Below are positions 1,399 through 37,221 of a DNA stretch of 41,741 bases, one piece after another. Positions within the stretch are counted from its first letter, which is position 1; every line of letters begins with the position of its first letter. A program made the translations under genes and the position numbers. This stretch comes from a virus (Duplodnaviria; Heunggongvirae; Uroviricota; Caudoviricetes): IMG/VR virus record IMGVR_UViG_3300045988_117301; one strand, written 5' to 3'. Below the pieces are notes generated by a model. The model did no database searches. It was given only the letters and a program-made list of their open reading frames with translations, and was not told where the DNA came from.

Positions 1399-1647
1399 AT
1401 GCGTATTGAAATCTGCATAGCCAAAGAAAAAATGACTAAAATGCCAACCGGTGCTGTGGATGCGTTAAAGGAAGAATTAACCCGACGCATCAGTAAACGT
1501 TATGACGATGTAGAGGTGATCGTAAAAGCCACCAGCAACGATGGCCTTTCTGTTACGCGCACCGCCGATAAAGATTCAGCTAAAACTTTTGTTCAGGAAA
1601 CTCTGAAAGATACCTGGGAGTCTGCTGACGAGTGGTTTGTTCACTAA
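1399..1647 (+). CDS. DinI-like damage-inducible protein
   Basis: 82 aa, [11 protein letters not shown]...[11 protein letters not shown] resembles E. coli DinI (about 81 aa, C-terminal TWESADDWF); Shine-Dalgarno AGAGGGA; LexA boxes upstream. Confidence 0.8.
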
Positions 1648-5218: not shown

Positions 5219-8200
5219 TCAGCTAATCGTGATGCCTGCAGTGGCTTTCTTCATCACAACAACCAGCAAATCGCTGATACTTGCTGTGGGATACCAGCCA
5301 TTTACCCACCATGCTGATACAGAAAACTCCAGCGTCATGTGGCCGCGACCAGCAGGCATATCAATAACACCACTGTAAACCAGCGTATTATCCATCGCGG
5401 TACGGTTATAAATTTCAGCACCGTTTTTCTTCACTATCAGGCGGCATGACGAATAAGTATCGCTGTTCTCCCGCTCATGTCTGGCACCGCTGAAAGCCAC
5501 CGCCGGAATAACAATCTGCCGGTTAAACGGCTGATCGTCATAAACCCTGACGGTAATGGTTCCTGATGGCCAACGCTCCGGTGCACGGGAGTCACGAGGG
5601 AAAGCCTTACCCACTGTTTTAACGAGATCGCCTTCAATCTGGTTTGCAGACAGTTTCCCTCTGATGACACAGTTCTCGTTAATGGTGACATTATTGAGCG
5701 TGCCGGTATTCGCCGTGATGGCTCCACTGATATCCGCATTGCGGGCTGTCAGCCTGCCATCCGGCGTCAGGGAAAACGTCGGAGGATTGCCGGATGACGT
5801 GATGCTCACCGCAAACAGTCGCTTCAGGAACACGTCGTTCATGAACAGCTGATTCCCCTGCGCCACAAACAGCGGCGTGGTGTTGCCGTTCTCCGGGGTA
5901 ATCATCGCAATGCGATCGGCCTGCAGCAGAATGTTACTCAGGGTCTGACCATCAACATCCTCAATCCCCGCACCAATCCCGGCCACATAGGGAATACCGT
6001 TTTTTGTTTTCTGCACCTTCAGCATATACATGGCATTCAGCTCATTGCGCGTGTCTGACTGAACCCGCTGGATTTGCTGTATGGTCACGGCCTGGTCACC
6101 CAGCTTTTTATCCGTGGTCGAGGTAATTTCACTCCCTTTTTTATCCACGTACTGGCGGACCTGTGCTATCTGTCGGGCGTTTTCTGACTGCCCCTGGCTG
6201 ACAGTCTGTGAGATTTCACTGCTCACCCGGTCCACTTTCTGGCTCACCTGCGCGATGGCCAGTGTCTGGTCCTCATTCTTTTTCGCAACCAGCTGCGTGA
6301 GGCTGTTTTCCGCCTTCCCGATTTTCCGGGTCACTTCTGCGATATCCGTGTCCATCCGCTGACGGATATCTTCTTCCAGTTGCGTGACCTCCGTACGCAG
6401 CGCTGAAGCATCAATGCGCTCTTTCAGTGCCTGGCCCAGAAGCGTCTCATCTATCAGCCCCCGGAAAATTTCCAGATACCCTTCACCATCATTGCTGGGC
6501 TGCCCGCTGGCTTCCACAAAAGCAGATTTTCCCACCAGGTTGACGCTTCGCACGTAAAACCAGAAATCCGTCCCCGGCTTAATCCGGCTCCCCTGGACAG
6601 TCCACTGACTGCCGGTCCCCAGATAACGGGCAGATTTTTCCACCTGTGCTGTGTTCGTGATGCGTTTTTCTGAGAACCAGAATTCAAACTGTACCGTCGG
6701 GTCATACACCGCAAGACGCGGGACCGCCGTTATCTGAAAATACCCCGGCGTCAGCTCAATGGTGGCGGGTTTTGCAGGTGCGTTAATCCGGAACGATACC
6801 GACGCCGGATCGCCCTGCTGTCCCCGGGTATTTACCGCCCGGACCGTCAGCGTGTAACGCCCCAGCGCCAGCTGCCTGAAGCGGTAAGTGGTTTCCGCCG
6901 TCCGGGCCGTGCTGACCAGCCGCTCACTGCCGTCATCCGCTGTTACGGTCAGACGGAGCAGGAAGCTCACGCCCTTCACCACCTTCGGCGTGTCCCAGCG
7001 CGCCAGCACCTGATATTCCCCGCTGTCTGCGGTGACTTCGGCGGTCAGGTGCTGCACCGCTGGCGGCGTGACACCATTCACCGTGCCGCTCTGGTCGCCG
7101 TCAAAGTGCGCTCCGTTATCCACGATGGCCTCTTTTTCCGGTACATGCTGCACGGCGGTGATGGCATACGCACCGTCATCGTTCTCCCGGATACTCACAC
7201 AGCGGAACAGGCGCTGGCGCAGCGTCGGCAGCTTCAGCCCCCACACGCTGTATTCGGCAACGCCGTCAGGAATACGGCTCACTTTCACCTTCACGCCGTC
7301 GGTGACGGACTGGACCTCCACGCTGACCGGATTACCCTGACCGTCAACAAGGCTTATCAGCGTGGTACCGGAGGATGGCAGCGTGATTTCACGGTCGAGC
7401 GTCAGCGTCCGGGTCTGGCTGTTCACCGCCAGCACGCGCCCGCCGGTGCTGATACCGGCATAGTCATCATCACAGATTTCAATGACATCGCCCGGAACAT
7501 GGCGAAGCCCTTCTGCGCCCACGCTGAAATCCACGGTCTGCGTTTCCAGCAGTTCCGTTTTAATCAGCCACAGCCCGGCGCGGTGTGCCTGCCCCCGGCT
7601 GGTACAGCCAAAGGCATCCATCTTCGTGACATTACGACCGTAACGGGCAATGGCCTGCGTATCTTCAACAAGCTCTGTCGCCGTCTCCCAGCCGTTGTTC
7701 GGGTCAATCCAGTTCACCTCAACGGCATTATGGCGGTCCTTCAGGGCGCTGAAGCTGTAGCGGAACGGCGCGCCATCATCCGGCATCACCACATTACTGC
7801 GGTTATAGGTCCACACCTTATCCGACTGTCGGTCCTGCACGAACGTCAGCGTCTGCCCGTTCCATACCGGCATACAGCGCATCGCCGAGCAGAAATCACT
7901 GAGCACATCCCACGCCTTGCGCTGTGTGGTCAGGTACGCATTACAGGTGATGCGCGGCTCCGTGCCGCCAAAGCCGTCCGGCACTGACTGGTCGCAGTAC
8001 TGGCCGATGACATACAGCGCCCATTTGTCCACATCCGCCGCACCAAGACGTTTCCCCATGCCGTAGCGCGGGTGGGTCAGCATATCCCACAGACACCAGG
8101 CCATGTTGTTGCTGTATGCTGGTTTTAACGTTCCGTCCCAGATACCGCTGTATTGCCGCGTCTGCGGGTTATAATTCGACGGCACCTGCAGAATGCGCCC

Positions 8201-27172: not shown

Positions 27173-28225
27173 TTATTTCCCCACCAGCTCGTTTATCTCT
27201 TTCACTGTCTGGTTAAACCGCTCTGACTCAAGCTCAACACCTAAGGCCCGACGCCCCAGCGCCATTGCTGCTTTTATTGTGGAACCGGAGCCCATAAAAA
27301 AATCAGCAACCAGATCACCTGGTCGACTACTGGCATTGATTATTTGCCTGAGCATATCCGCCGGTTTCTCACACGGATGTTTCCCCGGGTAGAACTGAAC
27401 GGGTTTATGCATCCAGACGTCGGTATAAGGCACGGAAACTGATACGGAGAAATAGCGCCGGAGAGTTTTAAACTCATCCAGCAATTCATAATATTTGCGA
27501 TTCAGTGAATCATAAGATGCCACCAGCTGGTGGTGTGGTTGTTCCAGTTGTTTTTCCTGAAACTTCTCTGCCGCTATACGGGAAAACAGTGCCTGCAACT
27601 TCCGGTAGTCAGCCTCATTCGGCAACTGCCACTGACTGGCACCAAACCAGTGGGAAACCATATTTTTCTTACCAGTGGCTTCGGCAATCTGTTTTGCCGT
27701 TATACCCAGTTCGGCACGAGCATCCCTGAAATACGATATCAGCGGTGCCATTATGTGCTGTTTGAGTTCCCTTTCTTTTGCCGCATAGCCGTCACTTTTG
27801 CCGCGATATGGCCCCTGGTAATGTTCAGCAAACAGAACGCGCTCTGTGGCAGGAAAATATGCGCGCAGACTTTCTTTATTACACCCATTCCAACGTCCGG
27901 ACGGCTTCGCCCAGATGATATGGTTAAGCACGTTGAAACGTTCACGCATCATGATCTCAATATCAGATGCCAGGCGATGCCCACAGAACAGGTAAAGGCT
28001 TCCGGCAGGTTTCAACACCCGCCAGAACTGGGCCAGACAGTGGTCCAGCCACTTAAGGTAATCTTCGTCCCCTTTCCACTGATTGTCCCAGCCGTTGGGT
28101 TTCACCTTGAAGTAAGGCGGATCGGTAACAATCAGGTCAATGGAATCATCAGGCAGGGACTGAATAAAATGCAGGCAATCAGCGTTGATTAAATCAACAC
28201 TGTTTATTTTTACAGTATTTTTCAT
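27173..28225 (-). CDS. Orphan DNA methyltransferase, beta-class (DPPY motif; likely N6-adenine)
   Basis: 350 aa; motif [10 protein letters not shown] near N-terminus, AdoMet motif FFMGSGST near C-terminus; no adjacent restriction endonuclease. Confidence 0.85.
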
Positions 28226-31589: not shown

Positions 31590-31979
31590 TCAGGCGGCTG
31601 CACCCGCCGGTTTCTCATACTTACTGATAGTGATCTCGACCTTCCCTTTCGGGATAACCGGTCCCCACTCCACCAGCATTCTTTTCACCTGTCTGTCGTC
31701 TTCCCACACACCCGCGTGGGTCAGGGCGTCAAACAGCGCCTTGTTATAGTTGTCCAGATCGCGGATCCGGTTATCCGGAGGAAACAACACGATCTCCACT
31801 GAAGCAGGTGCCGACGTTGGTTTCGGCAGACGACGTAACTGCTCAACTATTGCTGCGCACGCCGCGCTCTGAAATTTTCGCCCCGCCTCGCTTATCAGGC
31901 TCTTACCAGCAAATGCCCCTTTGTTGGGGTGTCGCCAGTACGTGTTCACACTGGGCGGGAAAGGCAGGATCAACTTCAT
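31590..31979 (-). CDS. rusA: Holliday junction resolvase RusA
   Basis: 129 aa; LPFPPSVNTYWRH...RDLDNYNKALFDALTHAGVWEDDRQV matches the RusA family. Confidence 0.9.
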   Translation of the reverse strand: MKLILPFPPSVNTYWRHPNKGAFAGKSLISEAGRKFQSAACAAIVEQLRRLPKPTSAPASVEIVLFPPDNRIRDLDNYNKALFDALTHAGVWEDDRQVKRMLVEWGPVIPKGKVEITISKYEKPAGAAA

Positions 31980-32302
31980 ACTTTCAGGCCCCTCTCATGT
32001 AACCAGTGGGCTGCACGCAGCCTGGCGTTCTCCTCACCGGCAAGCAGTGCGCGGATGATACCGACCGCTTCGCTGTCGTCGTCCTTCACTGCGGTATGAA
32101 GCGTTATCCCCCGGGCCACGCCACGCTTTATCGTGATGACGCCTTTTTTCTCCAGTGCGCGAAGATGCTCCACCGCTGCATTCACTGAACGGTATCCCAG
32201 CATGGTTGCCACCTCCTGATTGGTTGGCGGAAAGCCACGCTCTTGCTGGTAAGAAATCAGCATATCCAGCACCTGCTGCTGGCATTGAGTTAACGTCGTC
32301 AT
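31976..32302 (-). CDS. LexA N-terminal DNA-binding-domain-like protein (no peptidase domain)
   Basis: 108 aa; QQQVLDMLISYQQERGFPPTNQEVATMLGYRSVNAAVEHLRALEKKGVI resembles the LexA winged-helix domain; ATGA overlap with upstream gene. Confidence 0.6.
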   Translation of the reverse strand: MTTLTQCQQQVLDMLISYQQERGFPPTNQEVATMLGYRSVNAAVEHLRALEKKGVITIKRGVARGITLHTAVKDDDSEAVGIIRALLAGEENARLRAAHWLHERGLKV

Positions 32303-32952
32303 GCCGCCATCTCCCTGACAAGTTTTTCTGCCTGCTGGCGAACCTGCGCCAAAAACGCCTCACCACATGCCTCAAGTTCATCGCGCCCGATGTAGCTGAT
32401 TGCCGGTCCCTTCCAGGTCTTGTCGAAAACAGCAATAGCACCAGCGAAGAAAGCGCCTGTCGGCACCTGCTTCTCATCCTTCGGGATAAACCAGGCAGGC
32501 AGTTCAAAACCAATACGCCCGCGAATAAAAGCAATATGGTCTGCATCTTCCGGCCACCACACTTCGCTGGTGGCAGCTTTGATCAGGAAAACATAGCGCC
32601 CACCCTTATCACGCATGGCACTGGCATGTTTCATGATGTAACGCATGCCGGTGATGTATTGCCCCTCATGCTGACTGGCGCGGCTGTATGGGGGATTACC
32701 AAAGGCAGCCCCTTTAAGCTCCGCAAGACGTTCTGACCAGTCATGCGCCAGCGCGTTGTCTTCCGCCGTGTAATACGCAGCACATTTGGCGTTATCACCG
32801 TCAGTGAACAGATCCAGAACAAACGGGCCAAACAGGGTGTTAATTCCCCAGAAAATGTTGTCCGGCGTGCGCCACTGATCGCCCACTTCCTTCAGTTCAT
32901 GGGCTGGTTTGTTCCGCAGTTCCACCAGCGCCTGGCAATATTTATTACTCAT
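32299..32952 (-). CDS. Phage N6-adenine DNA methyltransferase (Dam-like, NPPY motif)
   Basis: NPPY catalytic motif (GNPPYSRA); start at ATG 32952 overlapping upstream stop (TAATG). Confidence 0.8.
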   Translation of the reverse strand: MSNKYCQALVELRNKPAHELKEVGDQWRTPDNIFWGINTLFGPFVLDLFTDGDNAKCAAYYTAEDNALAHDWSERLAELKGAAFGNPPYSRASQHEGQYITGMRYIMKHASAMRDKGGRYVFLIKAATSEVWWPEDADHIAFIRGRIGFELPAWFIPKDEKQVPTGAFFAGAIAVFDKTWKGPAISYIGRDELEACGEAFLAQVRQQAEKLVREMAA

Positions 32953-33440
32953 TAAGCCCCCACGTAATTCCCTGACAGATACCACTCTTCACCCGATGCA
33001 GCGCGCTTGCTGCTTTTCCGTAAGCACCGCTCACGACGCGTCAGAAAATTGTTTCGTTCTGGCTGGGAGTGGCTTTCACGGAATGCCGCCATCCACACGG
33101 TTGCAGCACGACGGTATAAGCCCCTTGACTCCAGTTCTTCAGCCTGGCGGGTCAGGCACAAAATCACCCGGGGATCGTTAGTGCCGACATAGAAATTGCG
33201 CACAGGTCTGGTTTCACGAACTGGTTGTGGTTCCGGCTCCTGCGCTCTCTCAGTCAGGCGCGGGAAATGTCTGCGTGTATCTCCTTCACAACGGTGAGCC
33301 ACACGCCCACTCTGACGTAACTTGCTTGCTGACTGCAGAACGCGCTGCCGTGAGTAACCTGCAAAAGCATCCGCAATGTCTCCGGAAGTACACCCCGGAT
33401 GGGCTTCAATGAATTTCTGAACTTCATTCAAAAGACTCAT
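32952..33440 (-). CDS. Regulatory protein with PerC/Pch-like C-terminal motif
   Basis: C-terminal LYRRAATVWMAAF...ERNNFLTRRERCLRK resembles the PerC/Pch family pattern (LWRRA..W....RRxxC); N-terminal winged-helix-like segment. Confidence 0.45.
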   Translation of the reverse strand: MSLLNEVQKFIEAHPGCTSGDIADAFAGYSRQRVLQSASKLRQSGRVAHRCEGDTRRHFPRLTERAQEPEPQPVRETRPVRNFYVGTNDPRVILCLTRQAEELESRGLYRRAATVWMAAFRESHSQPERNNFLTRRERCLRKSSKRAASGEEWYLSGNYVGA

Positions 33441-33442
33441 GA

Positions 33443-34261
33443 TCACCCCCTGAATCCTGCCGGGATCTGGCTGTAGTCCACGTTGTCGTAACTGGCTTTG
33501 AAGTACGGATCCTCACGTCTGGCTGCAGATACCGCAGGAACTTCCCAGGATTCTTCGAAATGACGATCCGGACCAAAGAACGTGACAGCCTGTTTCACAA
33601 ATTGTGTGCCGCTGTTACCCATCGCAGATACCCAGCCCGCATAGCGTTTCACACCTTCCAGCATGGTTTCGGGGTTTACCCCCTCATTCAAACGGGCTTT
33701 CCAGGCTTTGAAGGCTGCAGATTTTGAATTGCCACCAGCACGTTTGGGGTATGCCAGCCATGCCTGCTCAAACTCCGGAGAGTATTCCGGTCGGTTTGAA
33801 CGAACTCGCACAGACTCATCAGCAGATGCACCAACAGCTATTGGTTCATTGACTGGTTCTTTGACTGGTTCAAAAGAGTGACTGGTTCTGGGTGAATCTC
33901 CTGCACCACCCCCTGGTGCAACTCCTGCACTACCTGGTGAATTTGCTGCACCAGATAGTGAATTATTTGCACTACCCCCTAGTGAATCTCCTGCACCATC
34001 AAGATGAAGGAGATAGATATTACTTGAGTTACCTTTTTCACCTTTCCGGGTGACTTTTTTTACCAGTCCGGAATCACAAAGAGCCGCAATATGATTCATC
34101 ACAGAACGTTTGCTAATCTCGCACTGGTCAGCAATATGCTGGTAGCTGGGCCAGCACTCACCCTGATCGCTGGCGTTATCAGCCAGCTTGATCAGAACCA
34201 GTTTTCGCAATGGATTACCCACTCGAATTTTCATCGCTTTAACCATCAGCTCCATACTCAT
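33443..34261 (-). CDS. Replication initiator O-like protein (N-terminal HTH, Gly/Ala/Ser linker encoded by iterons)
   Basis: Start ATG 34261 with Shine-Dalgarno GGAGG and ATGA overlap; low-complexity linker GSANNSLSGAANSPGSAGVAPGGGAGDSP coincides with DNA iterons. Confidence 0.8.
   Translation of the reverse strand: MSMELMVKAMKIRVGNPLRKLVLIKLADNASDQGECWPSYQHIADQCEISKRSVMNHIAALCDSGLVKKVTRKGEKGNSSNIYLLHLDGAGDSLGGSANNSLSGAANSPGSAGVAPGGGAGDSPRTSHSFEPVKEPVNEPIAVGASADESVRVRSNRPEYSPEFEQAWLAYPKRAGGNSKSAAFKAWKARLNEGVNPETMLEGVKRYAGWVSAMGNSGTQFVKQAVTFFGPDRHFEESWEVPAVSAARREDPYFKASYDNVDYSQIPAGFRG
33849..33998. repeat. Candidate replication origin: three TGACTGGTTC repeats and five 18-bp iterons (consensus GGTGAATCTCCTGCACCA) at about 22-bp spacing, then an AT-rich stretch
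   Basis: Iterons at 33891, 33915, 33936, 33958 and 33981; located inside the O-like gene as in lambda ori. Confidence 0.6.
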
Positions 34262-34482
34262 GCTGCACCTCCGAGATGCTTCATGTTTTTTCCGGAGCAA
34301 AAGGCTATAAGCGGCATACTGATGCGGTAATTACGGCCCAGCGGTTCACAAATCACCTTCTGACATTCACGGTCAACCAGGCTGACACGTAGAACATGCC
34401 CTGCAGGCGTGGTGTACCACTGACCAGGACGAGGACAACGGAAAGTCTGATTGGTAAACCGTTTGAAAATATTCCGGATCAT
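34258..34482 (-). CDS. Hypothetical small protein (translationally coupled)
   Basis: 74-aa ORF whose start and stop both overlap neighbouring genes (ATGA overlaps). Confidence 0.4.
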   Translation of the reverse strand: MIRNIFKRFTNQTFRCPRPGQWYTTPAGHVLRVSLVDRECQKVICEPLGRNYRISMPLIAFCSGKNMKHLGGAA

Positions 34483-35630
34483 TTGCGCCCCCTTACCTCT
34501 GAAGGGTTCAGCGACAAATTTATGAGGCAGGCCAGTGCCGAAGCATCATTAATATAGTCATACAAGCTAACAGCCAGCGGAGATTCGGCTTTTGCCAACA
34601 TAGGATAAAGCTGCTGCAGCCAGACCTGATGAATTGATGAAATGTAGGAATAGAGAACGCTGGCGTTATGTGCAACGTCGCTCAGTACAGAGGGATTTGA
34701 AAGCTGTTTCTCCATCTGGTTAAAGGCATTGATGTATGCCTCTTTGAACTGGGCAGCACGTTTACCCGTGAACCCCATAGCAAGAAACGCAAAGCCGTCG
34801 CGGGTTATTTGATAGCAAGGTAGTTTGCGGCCTGTGCAATCGGTGTAATCACTCACCGAAAAATTGCGGGCAGTGAATGATGCAGAGCATTCAAGCGTGC
34901 GGATCTTTTTCAGTACATCGTCATGACGTTTGGAGAAGAAGTTGGCAACAGCCAGGGATGAAGTAACAGCCTGACCATCAACGATGGCAATTTCAGGTTG
35001 AGTGAGGGTTGGGATCGTAGCCATGATGGCAGCCTCTTTGGTGATTTTTAATAACTCACCACCAAGGCTTTCCACGACCTTATTGGTGGTGAGACGTACA
35101 GGGGTGGAAATACCGGTCACCAAAGAACCCGGCCCAACCGAAGTTGGCCCTGCACGCCCCACCATAATTTGGGCGTAATGCTGCTCATTACACAAAAAAA
35201 CCGCAAGAGCGCGGTTGTGCGCTTTGGTGAATTCCGGGTTTCCACGCCCGGCACCCGCTTTATAAGGTGCCTGAACAGTGTAACGTCCCGGAATGGCAGA
35301 ATCAATGTGCTGGTGGTCCTTCACACTCAACAAAATCATGCCTGAATTTCCACAAAGGACTAAAGCACTCATGCGGGTAGTCTTTGCGAAGATAGATAAC
35401 GCGCTGTGTTTCTGGCTCCCAACGAATAACATGGACATAAAGCCCTCTTCCGTCACGAAACCAGCGGTTAAGTTCCTGCACAACTCGCCCCCCACAGTCA
35501 GGTAAAGTTCTCTGTGGTTACTTACAGCCAGGTGATTTGGTAATCTGCATTCATACCGTAACAACAGGTGTTCAGCGACACTGACCACCAGCTGTTGCGA
35601 CAAACGGTTATTTGCCGTTAAACTGTTCAT
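34479..35630 (-). CDS. Rha-family regulatory protein with a 200-aa in-frame N-terminal extension of unknown function
   Basis: ATG 35630 overlaps cII-like stop (ATGA); internal ATG 35027 with Shine-Dalgarno AAGAGG precedes the Rha-like part (MATIPTLTQPEIAIVDGQAVTSSLAVANFFSKRHDDVLKKIR...). Confidence 0.6.
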   Translation of the reverse strand: MNSLTANNRLSQQLVVSVAEHLLLRYECRLPNHLAVSNHRELYLTVGGELCRNLTAGFVTEEGFMSMLFVGSQKHSALSIFAKTTRMSALVLCGNSGMILLSVKDHQHIDSAIPGRYTVQAPYKAGAGRGNPEFTKAHNRALAVFLCNEQHYAQIMVGRAGPTSVGPGSLVTGISTPVRLTTNKVVESLGGELLKITKEAAIMATIPTLTQPEIAIVDGQAVTSSLAVANFFSKRHDDVLKKIRTLECSASFTARNFSVSDYTDCTGRKLPCYQITRDGFAFLAMGFTGKRAAQFKEAYINAFNQMEKQLSNPSVLSDVAHNASVLYSYISSIHQVWLQQLYPMLAKAESPLAVSLYDYINDASALACLINLSLNPSEVRGRK

Positions 35631-36528: not shown

Positions 36529-37221
36529 ATGAACATAGGAAATCGAGTCAGACAACTTCGCCAGGCGAAGAACATGAAAATCGCCGATCTCGCTGAAGCA
36601 ATAGGAGTGGATGCGGCGAATATCTCGCGCCTCGAAACAGGTAAGCAGAAACAATTCACTGAACAAGCCCTGAGTAATATTGCCAGGAGCTTAGGTGTTG
36701 ATATTGCTGATCTCTTTACCTCAGACCTCAAAAGTAATACTGTATGTAAAAACAGTATTAGTGAGGATGTTGCGCAGGTGAAGGATGTATTCCGTATTGA
36801 AATGCTGGATGTCAGTGCCAGTGCGGGAAATGGCCTTATCCAGGGCGGTGATGTCATTGATGTGATTCATGCCATTGAATACAGAACTGATAATGCTGTA
36901 TCGATGTTTGGTGGACGACCAGCAAATCACATTAAAGTTATCAACGTTCGTGGGGACAGTATGTGTCCAACCATTGAGCCAGGAGATCTCATCTTCGTTG
37001 ATATCAGTATCAATCAGTTTGATGGGGATGGTATATATGTATTTGGTTTTGATGATAAAATTTACGTCAAACGACTGCAAATGATACCTGATAAACTGCT
37101 GGTAATTTCTGATAATCAGATTTACCGCGAATGGGGAATTACCAGCGAAAACGAACACCGGTTTATGGTCTTTGGAAAGGTCTTAATCAGTCAGTCACAG
37201 ACCCTTAAGCGACACAATTAA
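36529..37221 (+). CDS. cI: CI-type repressor (HTH_XRE N-terminus, S24 LexA-like autopeptidase C-terminus)
   Basis: 230 aa; N-terminal HTH (MKIADLAEAIGVDAANISRLETGKQ), C-terminal RGDSMCPTIEPGD Ser motif and downstream VKRL Lys; candidate Ala-Gly cleavage site in SASAGNG. Confidence 0.9.
   Translation: MNIGNRVRQLRQAKNMKIADLAEAIGVDAANISRLETGKQKQFTEQALSNIARSLGVDIADLFTSDLKSNTVCKNSISEDVAQVKDVFRIEMLDVSASAGNGLIQGGDVIDVIHAIEYRTDNAVSMFGGRPANHIKVINVRGDSMCPTIEPGDLIFVDISINQFDGDGIYVFGFDDKIYVKRLQMIPDKLLVISDNQIYREWGITSENEHRFMVFGKVLISQSQTLKRHN

Follow-up and report, generated by a model that had tools for sequence, protein, structure and literature searches.

A LexA DNA-binding domain that has no self-cleavage domain attached to it is encoded in the early region of an E. 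coli prophage of ordinary lambda-like type, and it may act as a repressor that RecA cannot remove. The gene, called mini-LexA here, belongs with a PerC-like gene and a methylase gene to a cassette found in the window (the whole stretch of DNA analysed, 41,741 nucleotides). Mini-LexA is most likely an uncleavable repressor on LexA-type operators; we regard this as plausible but unproven, and favour it only tentatively.

The cassette itself is already known. The window is practically identical to Escherichia phage PhiR40_1 (100% DNA identity), whose genes are annotated in RefSeq/GenBank; among 5426 complete E. coli genomes, roughly four in ten (32-47%) have the cassette annotated by RefSeq, and it is also found in phages SfV, SfII, mEp460 and Stx2c/Stx2a. 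Having been annotated before, it is no addition as a gene finding, and the sequence-only reading from which this analysis started had not recognised that it was already annotated in some 40% of complete genomes of the species. What makes it useful is that it draws attention to mini-LexA, a gene without reported function, for which no functional study was found in the literature searched. The function of mini-LexA is the sole point of some interest, the PerC-like and methylase genes being ordinary.

Organisation of the cassette

The ORF list and a reading of the sequence place all features of the cassette on the minus strand, transcribed in the order PerC-like, methylase, mini-LexA and then the RusA Holliday-junction resolvase gene (31590-31979, minus strand; Pfam RusA, 1e-14), which adjoins mini-LexA downstream. 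The three family assignments made in the sequence-only reading, and their positions, were right, while its gene order had to be corrected to the direction of transcription. HMM support was the point on which those assignments had been made to depend, and Pfam, NCBIfam and PHROG models back all three.

Consecutive genes overlap by their stop and start codons. The PerC-like stop overlaps the methylase start in a TAATG (32954-32950), the methylase stop overlaps the mini-LexA start in an ATGA (32302-32299), and the mini-LexA stop overlaps the RusA start in another ATGA (31979-31976); these overlaps, read directly in the sequence, are those that had been described. No promoter-like site was found inside 31980-34300 on the minus strand, and no convincing terminator-like site inside the cassette, which, together with the overlaps, fits a single operon. 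Coupling of this kind is usual in lambdoid nin regions and nothing special. Directly upstream of the PerC-like gene, the nin-like region begins with a replication-initiation gene (O-like, HTH_36/DnaD-like; annotated extent 33443-34261, minus strand; Pfam HTH_36, 2.9e-11; PHROG 270, 5e-89). The delayed-early rightward (pR, nin-like) operon comprises, in this order, cro, ymfL, Rha, the replication gene, the PerC-like gene, the methylase, mini-LexA, RusA, KilA-N, DUF968 and Q.

The mini-LexA protein

The mini-LexA gene (31976-32302, minus strand) encodes 108 aa, laid out as a LexA-type winged-helix DNA-binding domain (residues 1-69) and a two-helix tail (73-88 and 93-103). The Pfam model LexA_DNA_bind (PF01726) aligns with residues 1-65 over 65/65 model positions (E = 2.6e-19, 69 bits for a cut-off of 23.7), and PHROG 362, 'transcriptional repressor', aligns over its full length (positions 1-106 of 106, 2.6e-59). 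The lexA model TIGR00498 matches over model positions 1-91 of 203 only, and its 70.3 bits are below the cut-off of 110.95. No Pfam match to Peptidase_S24 (PF00717) was obtained, and the protein stops at residue 108. These results uphold the proposal that only the N-terminal DNA-binding domain of LexA is present, with no autopeptidase; cleavage in cis is therefore impossible.

A sequence search of the PDB with mini-LexA returned LexA at 1e-15. In an AF2 model (a monomer prediction, pLDDT 84), Foldseek places the predicted N-terminal domain on the LexA-DNA complex 3JSO with an rmsd of 1.0 A over 68 residues and 50% identity. Contacts with DNA were judged on the five recognition-helix residues listed for LexA, namely Ser39, Asn41, Ala42, Glu44 and Glu45 (PMC3091678). 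The mini-LexA of the window keeps four of the five, Glu44 being replaced by Val.

The tail carries a hydrophobic i/i+3/i+4 pattern followed by the motif A-R-x-R-A-x-x-[WFY]-L, conserved in relatives down to 40% identity, and this conservation suggests that it may form an interface. The pair A88-G89 of mini-LexA aligns with the cleavage site Ala84-Gly85 of LexA ('LLAGE' versus 'VAAGE'). The possibility of a retained cleavage site, at which host LexA or phage CI could act in trans, was rejected, since the pair is predicted to be helical and is not conserved: relatives have AN, VG, TR, SG, DD, EE or DT at this position.

SOS boxes in the window and upstream of mini-LexA genes

Exact CTGT-N8-ACAG is found five times in the window, for about 0.65-0.7 expected (z = 5.4; none of 100 shuffles reached five), and four SOS boxes are strong by PWM score. 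Two of these, CACTGTTTATCCATACAGTT and CACTGTATACAAACACAGTA, stand in tandem at 1338-1385 (PWM 21.2 and 21.5). They had been pointed out at 1340-1383 and are real, both being exact matches; they form the operator of a dinI-like gene (1399-1647, plus strand; DinI Pfam, 1.1e-19). Another strong box, at 28198-28217 (PWM 22.8), forms codons 3-9 of the N6_N4_Mtase ORF, an arrangement also seen in loci L068, L073 and L074. The best box of the window, the near-consensus TACTGTATGTAAAAACAGTA (36738-36757; PWM 26.5), sits inside the ORF of the cI repressor (36529-37221, plus strand; HTH and Peptidase_S24 domains), and its arms are retained in the cI of SfII. If mini-LexA binds LexA boxes, those at 1338-1385 and 36738-36757 would be candidate targets.

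The box inside cI co-occurs with mini-LexA in 13/13 phage records. As evidence, this co-occurrence was discounted, since a distance of 4.3 kb within one module separates the two loci.

Pairs of CTGT/ACAG were scanned in inverted, everted and direct orientation at spacings of 0-20, and only inverted N8 was enriched in the window; the scan thus favoured no alternative operator geometry for a protein reading CTGT. The direct-repeat counts were noisy relative to simple Markov shuffles, and were left uninterpreted.

The upstream regions of mini-LexA genes were compared between the branch of the window, 'Type II', and its sister branch, 'Type I'. A strong SOS box lies at most 1.2 kb upstream of mini-LexA in 41 of the 50 Type I loci, the density of such boxes being 0.80 per kb there versus 0.023 per kb elsewhere. 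It stands at the front of a series of genes in the same orientation, namely dinI (when present), orf75 and mini-LexA, and is kept even where dinI is missing. These SOS-box-headed operons tie the mini-LexA family to the SOS circuit. Even the largest cluster, in which the helix reads SSNAVLLH and Glu45 is lost, still lies downstream of a canonical SOS box; host LexA alone explains the presence of this box, and autoregulation is not thereby shown. For Type II, an upstream SOS box was found in 0/30 loci. The window holds no homologue of orf75 or orf67, the Type I partners of mini-LexA.

Possible roles of mini-LexA

Repression of LexA-type operators is favoured by the 50% identity and 1.0 A fit to the LexA domain with Ser39, Asn41, Ala42 and Glu45 kept, as well as by the four strong SOS boxes of the window and by N8 being the sole enriched spacing. 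Mini-LexA would be made only after transcription of the pR operon has started, would dimerise via its helical tail, and would bind CTGT-type (LexA-like) operator half-sites. As RecA* would be unable to trigger its self-cleavage, LexA-type operators would stay repressed once host LexA had been destroyed. Host SOS genes would be among the targets, as would the four SOS boxes that the phage itself carries (those of dinI, of the late methylase and inside cI), so that mini-LexA would serve as an SOS shut-off or dampener in lytic growth, as DinI does. Of its operon neighbours, the methylase would most likely modify replicating phage DNA; the PerC-like protein would most likely be a phage-internal transcription modulator that counteracts H-NS silencing, by analogy with Pch.

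Several observations argue against action on LexA operators. One is the lack of upstream SOS boxes in the branch of the window itself. Another comes from the recognition helix as aligned: Glu44 is absent from all 22 mini-LexA clusters examined, with V, A, L, R, T or F instead, and several clusters, the largest among them, have lost Glu45 too. The helix varies from cluster to cluster (NAAVEH, NAAAEH, NAAADH, NAAATH, NAVALH, NAVLLH), in the manner of phage immunity-type diversification, whereas the full-length and fragmentary LexA sequences of the same alignment all retain NAAEEH.

Such variation could mean that mini-LexA is a transcription factor specific to the phage, which recognises an operator no longer like the SOS box and controls a phage promoter (for instance in nin-Q-late timing, or for neighbouring genes) while leaving the host LexA regulon unaffected. 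The geometry of the operator might differ as well. The dimerisation domain of LexA itself sets the half-site spacing (N8), and the dimer module of mini-LexA would be a different one, so that the spacing or orientation of its half-sites may be different. We nevertheless consider a diverged operator rather doubtful: no other enriched palindrome was found in the window, where canonical N8 alone is prominent among CTGT/ACAG pairs spaced by 0-20; the family never varies at Ser39 and Asn41, and the window protein retains Ala42 and Glu45; and genes of the Type I branch lie, together with dinI, in an operon under SOS control.

The conserved neighbourhood of the Type II genes raises another explanation, in which mini-LexA is not a transcription factor but a partner of the methyltransferase or of RusA, with a DNA-targeting or regulatory task, the overlaps serving to match protein amounts. 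Among 16 dereplicated Type II clusters, 13 have RusA at most 1 kb downstream of mini-LexA, and 13 have a methyltransferase at most 2.3 kb upstream, which belongs to either of two unrelated families (PF05869, or Dcm-like of 600-690 aa); in the window, 4-nt overlaps flank mini-LexA on both sides. A possible precedent is a small co-expressed subunit said to set the specificity of a Stx-phage methyltransferase (preprint 10.1101/2023.09.20.558713). However, mini-LexA persists without a methylase in SfIV (see also PMC3851460), L005 and L009, and without RusA in most Type I loci. Neighbours also diverge out of step, the RusA of L005 being 75% identical to that of the window and its mini-LexA only 44%, and gene order in nin regions is conserved anyway through module inheritance. 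Nor is the Koudelka-lab pair of that preprint, M.ECPA8_3172P and PNB-2, homologous to the cassette: gp5 and gp6 of phage PA8 have no meaningful similarity to the methylase, mini-LexA or the PerC-like protein. A partnership with either enzyme is therefore unlikely.

That mini-LexA is what is left of a captured lexA, decaying and functionless and a passenger of the nin region, is highly improbable: it does align through the LexA linker and the former cleavage site, as a truncated lexA should, but over the 22 clusters its full-length ORF is kept at 40-97% identity, with the core residues L4, Q8, P26, E30, G36, S39, N41 and R64-G65-I66 invariant and the tail conserved, it is intact in 2222 of the 5426 complete E. 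coli genomes, and it has a dedicated PHROG family of matching length.

Returning to the uncleavable repressor, a broader version of it can be formulated for the family. Mini-LexA would be a widespread, RecA-proof substitute for LexA, forming with DinI an SOS shut-off module. In the sister branch, cleavage of LexA would itself turn this module on, through an SOS-box promoter whose transcripts also extend into the late antiterminator gene Q. We see this generalisation as possible, with doubt prevailing. If it is true, a factor able to shut LexA operators again during prophage induction would be present in about 40% of E. coli strains, among them those with Stx2c and some Stx2a phages. SOS mutagenesis would then be altered, as would the cross-induction of co-resident prophages under LexA control and the timing with which toxin phages develop. 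A RecA*-resistant LexA DNA-binding domain is carried by Shiga-toxin, cdt and Shigella serotype-converting phages. Should SOS boxes be occupied by mini-LexA, it would be a common and overlooked SOS modifier, with a bearing on antibiotic-induced mutagenesis, prophage competition and the induction kinetics of Stx phages; should they not be, it would be one more nin-region regulator.

The PerC-like gene and the methyltransferases

The PerC/YfdN-type regulator gene (32952-33446, minus strand) encodes 162 aa if translated from the ATG at 33440; RefSeq starts yfdN at the GTG at 33446, which gives 164 aa. The length of 163 aa given earlier was off by one with respect to the ATG. The C-terminal PerC/Pch-like motif noticed in it is borne out by PF06069 (PerC), which matches residues 98-149 above the gathering cut-off (36.6 versus 22.6 bits), over HMM positions 5-56 of 90 only. 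The protein also matches PHROG 1324, 'transcriptional activator' (3.6e-78), and is annotated in RefSeq as 'yfdN: PerC family transcriptional regulator'. Its AF2 model (pLDDT 78) consists of an N-terminal winged helix (1-60), a disordered linker (63-84) and a three-helix PerC domain (90-149). The N-terminal domain has winged-helix structural matches at about 2 A rmsd, and a PDB sequence search found no solved relatives of the protein.

A role at host virulence loci, which had been implied, is not supported for the two-domain YfdN type. Tests of YfdN activity were not found in the literature searched, where one study went no further than deleting yfdN from its reporter strain; in that strain PchD and PchE, which are divergent Pch proteins, hardly activated ler (PMC5931665). 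The PerC-like gene is neither pchD nor pchE, as these are located in OI-43/48 and the P4-like OI-51 (PMC3378721), and not in a lambdoid nin region.

The methylase of the cassette (32299-32952, minus strand; 217 aa) is a Dam-like phage N-6-adenine methyltransferase, with E = 9.7e-46 for PF05869, 255.6 bits for the equivalog model TIGR01712 (phage_N6A_met; cut-off 97) and the motif NPPY at residues 86-89. No restriction gene was found near it, its neighbours being the PerC-like gene, mini-LexA, RusA and the replication protein, and the enzyme is an orphan. As had been proposed, there are two methyltransferases in the element: the other orphan, N6_N4_Mtase (27173-28225, minus strand; 350 aa; PF01555, 1.9e-42), lies between Q and the holin gene. 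GATC is mildly under-represented in the window, at 0.74 of the expected frequency, a value that does not set it apart from other palindromes. A PDB sequence search with the Dam-like enzyme gave no solved relatives.

Comparison with known systems

The PerC-like gene does not differ in kind from yfdN of the E. coli K-12 prophage CPS-53/KpLE1, with which it shares the two-domain layout of 162-164 aa and the neighbourhood; yfdM, the neighbour of yfdN in K-12, is a methylase remnant. With PerC of EPEC and PchA/B/C of EHEC, the activators of LEE1/ler, it has in common the PerC domain and a prophage- or plasmid-borne state. PerC and Pch consist of a single domain and measure about 90-104 aa, whereas the window protein, at 162-164 aa, adds the N-terminal winged helix and the disordered linker. 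The group 1 pch genes measure 315 bp (PMC5931665), and Pch is reported to act by remodelling H-NS nucleoprotein complexes (PMC4764244). No data on LEE1/ler activation by YfdN-type proteins were found in the literature searched. The methylase is like other phage 'Dam' enzymes of TIGR01712/PF05869 in its equivalog match, its NPPY motif and the lack of a restriction partner.

Mini-LexA is the same gene as in the members of PHROG 362 (SfV orf42, the 'LexA DNA binding domain protein' of SfII/mEp460, and the copies in the cdtI phage and Stx2c/Stx2a phages), at 95-100% DNA identity. There it likewise stands between methylase and rusA, and nothing of substance differs from the window copy, which fits the family in size (about 106 aa), in its tail, and in its position between replication genes and Q. 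LexA itself (PDB 1LEA, 3JSO) has in common with mini-LexA the winged-helix fold and residues Ser39, Asn41, Ala42 and Glu45. It differs by its S24 peptidase/dimerisation domain with Ser119/Lys156, which mini-LexA lacks, the linker and C-terminal domain being replaced by a 40-residue two-helix tail, and by Glu44, which is Val in mini-LexA; moreover, mini-LexA is phage-encoded, in the nin region.

In its proposed outcome, mini-LexA would resemble the DinI-like proteins and GIL01 gp7, which dampen or prolong LexA-type repression in favour of the phage, and dinI is its operon partner in the Type I branch. The target of DinI is the RecA filament, and that of GIL01 gp7 is LexA itself. Neither has any sequence relationship to mini-LexA, which would instead bind DNA directly.

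Identity and organization of the cassette

The sequence-only reading had placed a LexA-domain-only protein, a second orphan methyltransferase and a PerC-like regulator in the nin-like region, and had staked these assignments on HMM searches. Searches of Pfam, NCBIfam and PHROGs supported all three, and the family assignments of the cassette are confirmed. The 108-aa protein, designated mini-LexA (31976-32302, minus strand), matched LexA_DNA_bind over all 65 model positions (E = 2.6e-19) with no Peptidase_S24 match in Pfam, and is indeed a LexA DNA-binding domain without autopeptidase. It aligned with only the first 91 positions of the NCBIfam lexA equivalog (70 bits, below the cut-off of 111); its full-length PHROGs match was family 362, 'transcriptional repressor' (2.6e-59). 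The Dam-like methyltransferase (32299-32952, minus strand, 217 aa), with an NPPY motif at residues 86-89, matched Dam PF05869 (E = 1e-45), TIGR01712 phage_N6A_met at equivalog level (255.6 bits versus 97) and, at full length, PHROGs family 111, 'DNA methyltransferase'. The element does therefore encode a second, Dam-like methyltransferase, although it lies upstream of mini-LexA and not, as first described, after it. For the PerC-like protein, the C-terminal assignment held (PF06069, residues 98-149, 36.6 bits versus a gathering score of 22.6; full-length match to PHROGs family 1324, 'transcriptional activator'), but the length of 163 aa did not: the product has 162 aa from the ATG (32952-33440, minus strand), or 164 aa from a GTG that extends the gene to 33446, which is the RefSeq yfdN start.

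In transcript order, all on the minus strand, an O-like replication-initiation gene (33443-34261) is followed by the PerC-like, methyltransferase and mini-LexA genes and by RusA (31590-31979). The overlaps on which translational coupling had been proposed were found by direct reading of the sequence: TAATG at 32954-32950, and ATGA at 32302-32299 and 31979-31976. The delayed-early rightward operon comprises cro, ymfL, Rha, a small ORF, the replication gene, PerC-like, methylase, mini-LexA, RusA, KilA-N, DUF968 and Q, and no promoter-like sites were seen within the cassette.

Further upstream, Rfam identified a C4 antisense RNA (83.6 bits; 35082-35169, minus strand) and an isrK Hfq-binding RNA (67 bits; 35194-35270, minus strand). 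Both lie in the 5' third of the 383-aa 'Rha' ORF (34479-35630, minus strand) and fall precisely beneath the Phage_ASH match that Pfam gives for residues 117-213. Judging from these matches, the region resembles an RNA-controlled antirepressor module of the P1 immI type. The Rha ORF may have been called too long, the true start of Rha/Ant probably lying some way downstream.

Fold and tail of mini-LexA

Over residues 1-69, mini-LexA and E. coli LexA share about 50% identity in an ungapped alignment, and the AlphaFold2 model (pLDDT 84) fits the LexA chains of 3JSO, a LexA-DNA complex, with an rmsd of 1.0 A for 68 residues. Four of the five residues by which LexA is reported to contact DNA (Ser39, Asn41, Ala42, Glu44 and Glu45; PMC3091678) are retained, Glu44 being replaced by Val. 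Unlike LexA, mini-LexA continues beyond residue 70 as two helices (73-88 and 93-103) that have no LexA counterpart. The A88-G89 pair aligns with the LexA cleavage bond, but was rejected as a cleavage site because it varies in relatives and sits in a predicted helix.

A HMMER search, run exhaustively against 1.84 billion representatives, delineated a distinct family of roughly 105-135 aa with domain and tail in common. A tail pattern of hydrophobic residues at i/i+3/i+4, then A-R-x-R-A-x-x-[WFY]-L, is kept down to 40% identity. Such conservation suggests an interface; most simply, we infer, the tail of what is modelled as a monomer would be a dimerisation module in place of the LexA C-terminal domain. 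The same search also yielded proteins in which LexA_DNA_bind occurs twice in tandem and S24 is missing (P0128, P0135, P0141, P0144, P0148, P0156, P0159 and P0163), which could be single-chain 'dimers' of the DNA-binding domain.

Two architectures of the mini-LexA family

A comparative set of 80 IMG/VR loci and nine further contexts was annotated by a custom script, using phmmer with the window proteins and an SOS-box position weight matrix made from 19 E. coli operators. Grouped at 90% identity, the mini-LexA loci gave 22 clusters, which fall into two architectures: Type II, with 16 clusters including that of the window, and Type I, with 6 clusters and 50 loci. The family is tied to the SOS circuit in Type I and to a methylase-RusA neighbourhood in Type II.

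The Type II layout consists of an optional PerC-like gene (7 of 16 clusters), Dam PF05869 and/or a 600-690-aa Dcm-like methylase (within 2.3 kb upstream of mini-LexA in 13 of 16), mini-LexA, RusA (within 1 kb downstream, again in 13 of 16), KilA-N and DUF968; the matrix scan found an upstream SOS box in none of 30 loci. In Type I, a strong SOS box over a sigma-70-like promoter precedes dinI (when present), orf75, mini-LexA, orf67, sometimes RusA, then DUF968 and Q. For 41 of 50 loci a box lay no more than 1.2 kb upstream (0.80 per kb, compared to 0.023 per kb elsewhere), and it was still there where dinI was missing (L009, L010, L016-18, L021-23 and L027). These box-headed strings were located at 3520-4410 in L009, 3520-4360 in L010 and 480-1520 in L014, and in L016-L064. 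As they end in Q, a LexA-repressed promoter reads towards the late antiterminator. Neither orf75 nor orf67 had a Pfam match or a homologue in the window.

At one locus, L005, RusA (5318-5707) is 75% identical to that of the window, while the adjoining mini-LexA is only 44% identical, which implies either a mosaic junction between the overlapping genes or much faster evolution of mini-LexA.

SOS boxes in the window

Among spacings of 0 to 20, inverted CTGT-N8-ACAG was the only enriched arrangement in the window (5 sites versus 0.7 expected), and four of the five sites were strong by position weight matrix. Two of them form a tandem pair at 1338-1385, the operator of a dinI-like gene (1399-1647, plus strand; PF06183 DinI, E = 1e-19) directly after the integrase gene (240-1337); the boxes previously read at 1340-1383 are thus real, as exact matches. 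A prophage dinI under LexA control is an accessory (moron) gene of a known kind. The third (28198-28217) covers codons 3-9 (N-T-V-K-I-N-S) of the 'first' methyltransferase, a late N6_N4_Mtase of 350 aa between Q and holin (27173-28225, minus strand). The same arrangement recurs in divergent phages (L068, L073, L074 and L010), which suggests that this methylase, downstream of Q, is under LexA control. The fourth, TACTGTATGTAAAAACAGTA (36738-36757), is near-consensus and scores best in the window (26.5); it occupies codons 70-77, the HTH-S24 linker, of the CI repressor (cI ORF 36529-37221, plus strand). In SfII cI both arms are kept (TACTGTATATAAAAACAGTA) despite a non-synonymous change in the spacer. 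Conceivable roles for a LexA-type site at this position are those of a roadblock or of a promoter, either internal or antisense. All four strong boxes could be explained by host LexA alone.

Possible function of mini-LexA

The best-supported reading, which we advance tentatively, is that mini-LexA is an uncleavable LexA-domain repressor. Expressed from the pR operon and dimerised via its tail, it would occupy LexA-type operators once host LexA is gone, and would dampen the SOS response as does DinI, which acts on RecA filaments. The bolder reading, in which this widespread protein is a RecA-proof stand-in for LexA and makes up an SOS shut-off module, seems rather unlikely.

The recognition helix sets limits to mimicry of LexA, as it lacks LexA-like conservation. 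Glu44 is absent in every cluster (V, A, L, R, T or F instead). Several clusters, the largest of Type I (SSNAVLLH) among them, also have D, T or L in place of Glu45, whereas all true LexA sequences aligned with them are NAAEEH. That largest cluster still has a canonical SOS box upstream despite the loss of Glu45; the upstream box of Type I is therefore explained by host LexA, and is no proof of autoregulation. Moreover, a different dimer module could read half-sites at a spacing other than N8. A diverged, phage-specific operator is a possibility to be weighed here, if a rather unlikely one. Partnership with the neighbouring methylase or RusA, the Type II companions, is improbable, since SfIV has mini-LexA without the methylase, most Type I loci have no RusA, and RusA may be 75% identical beside a mini-LexA of only 44% identity. 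Conservation across the family leaves very little room for a functionless remnant.

The PerC-like protein and the methylases

In contrast to classical PerC and PchABC, which are single-domain, the PerC-like protein is predicted to have an N-terminal winged helix (residues 1-60) and a disordered linker (63-84) before the three-helix PerC domain (90-149). The winged helix is confidently predicted, at about 2 A rmsd to MarR/ArsR/BlaI-type domains. PchD and PchE are located outside a nin region, in OI-43/48 and a P4-like island (PMC3378721), and barely activate ler (PMC5931665); in the latter study YfdN is mentioned solely as a deletion in the reporter strain. Pch is reported to remodel H-NS nucleoprotein complexes (PMC4764244), and by analogy the most economical guess is a phage-internal counter-silencing role. 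Residues 96-142 also gave a sub-threshold match to ANR (AraC negative regulator, Aar-like; NF033650, E = 2.7e-5, 23.9 bits versus a cut-off of 32), a hint of kinship between these two groups of small helical regulators, PerC and ANR.

The Dam-like methylase is an orphan phage enzyme of the standard kind. GATC occurs in the window at an unremarkable frequency, and no restriction partner was found near it or the N6_N4_Mtase. PDB sequence searches returned no solved relatives of the PerC-like protein or the Dam-like methylase. A two-subunit Stx-phage methylase (preprint 10.1101/2023.09.20.558713) was set aside as superficially similar, not homologous.

Comparison with known phages

The cassette is an ordinary, already-catalogued nin-region module. 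The 2.9 kb around it are 100% identical to Escherichia phages PhiR40_1 and PhiR55_1 (induced ECOR prophages), and 97 to 98% identical to Stx2c phages, two Stx2a phages, phiSTEC1575-Stx2k, 1720a-02 and mEp460. In the O157:H7 Stx2a phage Stx2a_WGPS2 (AP012537.1 / NC_049941.1) the cassette is split by IS629, a natural disruption whose intact sibling is Stx2a_1447. Among 5426 complete E. coli genomes (at least 80% gene coverage), mini-LexA was present in 2222, the PerC-like gene in 2547 and the methylase in 1725, each in up to 4 copies per genome.

Full-text literature searches found no functional study of mini-LexA. The cassette itself was already known and annotated, through the identical deposited phage, PHROG 362, the RefSeq names ('PerC family transcriptional regulator (yfdN)', 'phage N-6-adenine-methyltransferase' and 'LexA family transcriptional regulator') and SfV, where the mini-LexA gene is orf42. 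Matches to the mini-LexA gene alone also extend to SfII, SfIV and the cdtI phage. What is added here to these known systems is the two family architectures, including an SOS box-dinI-orf75-mini-LexA-Q operon in relatives, which provides a testable hypothesis.
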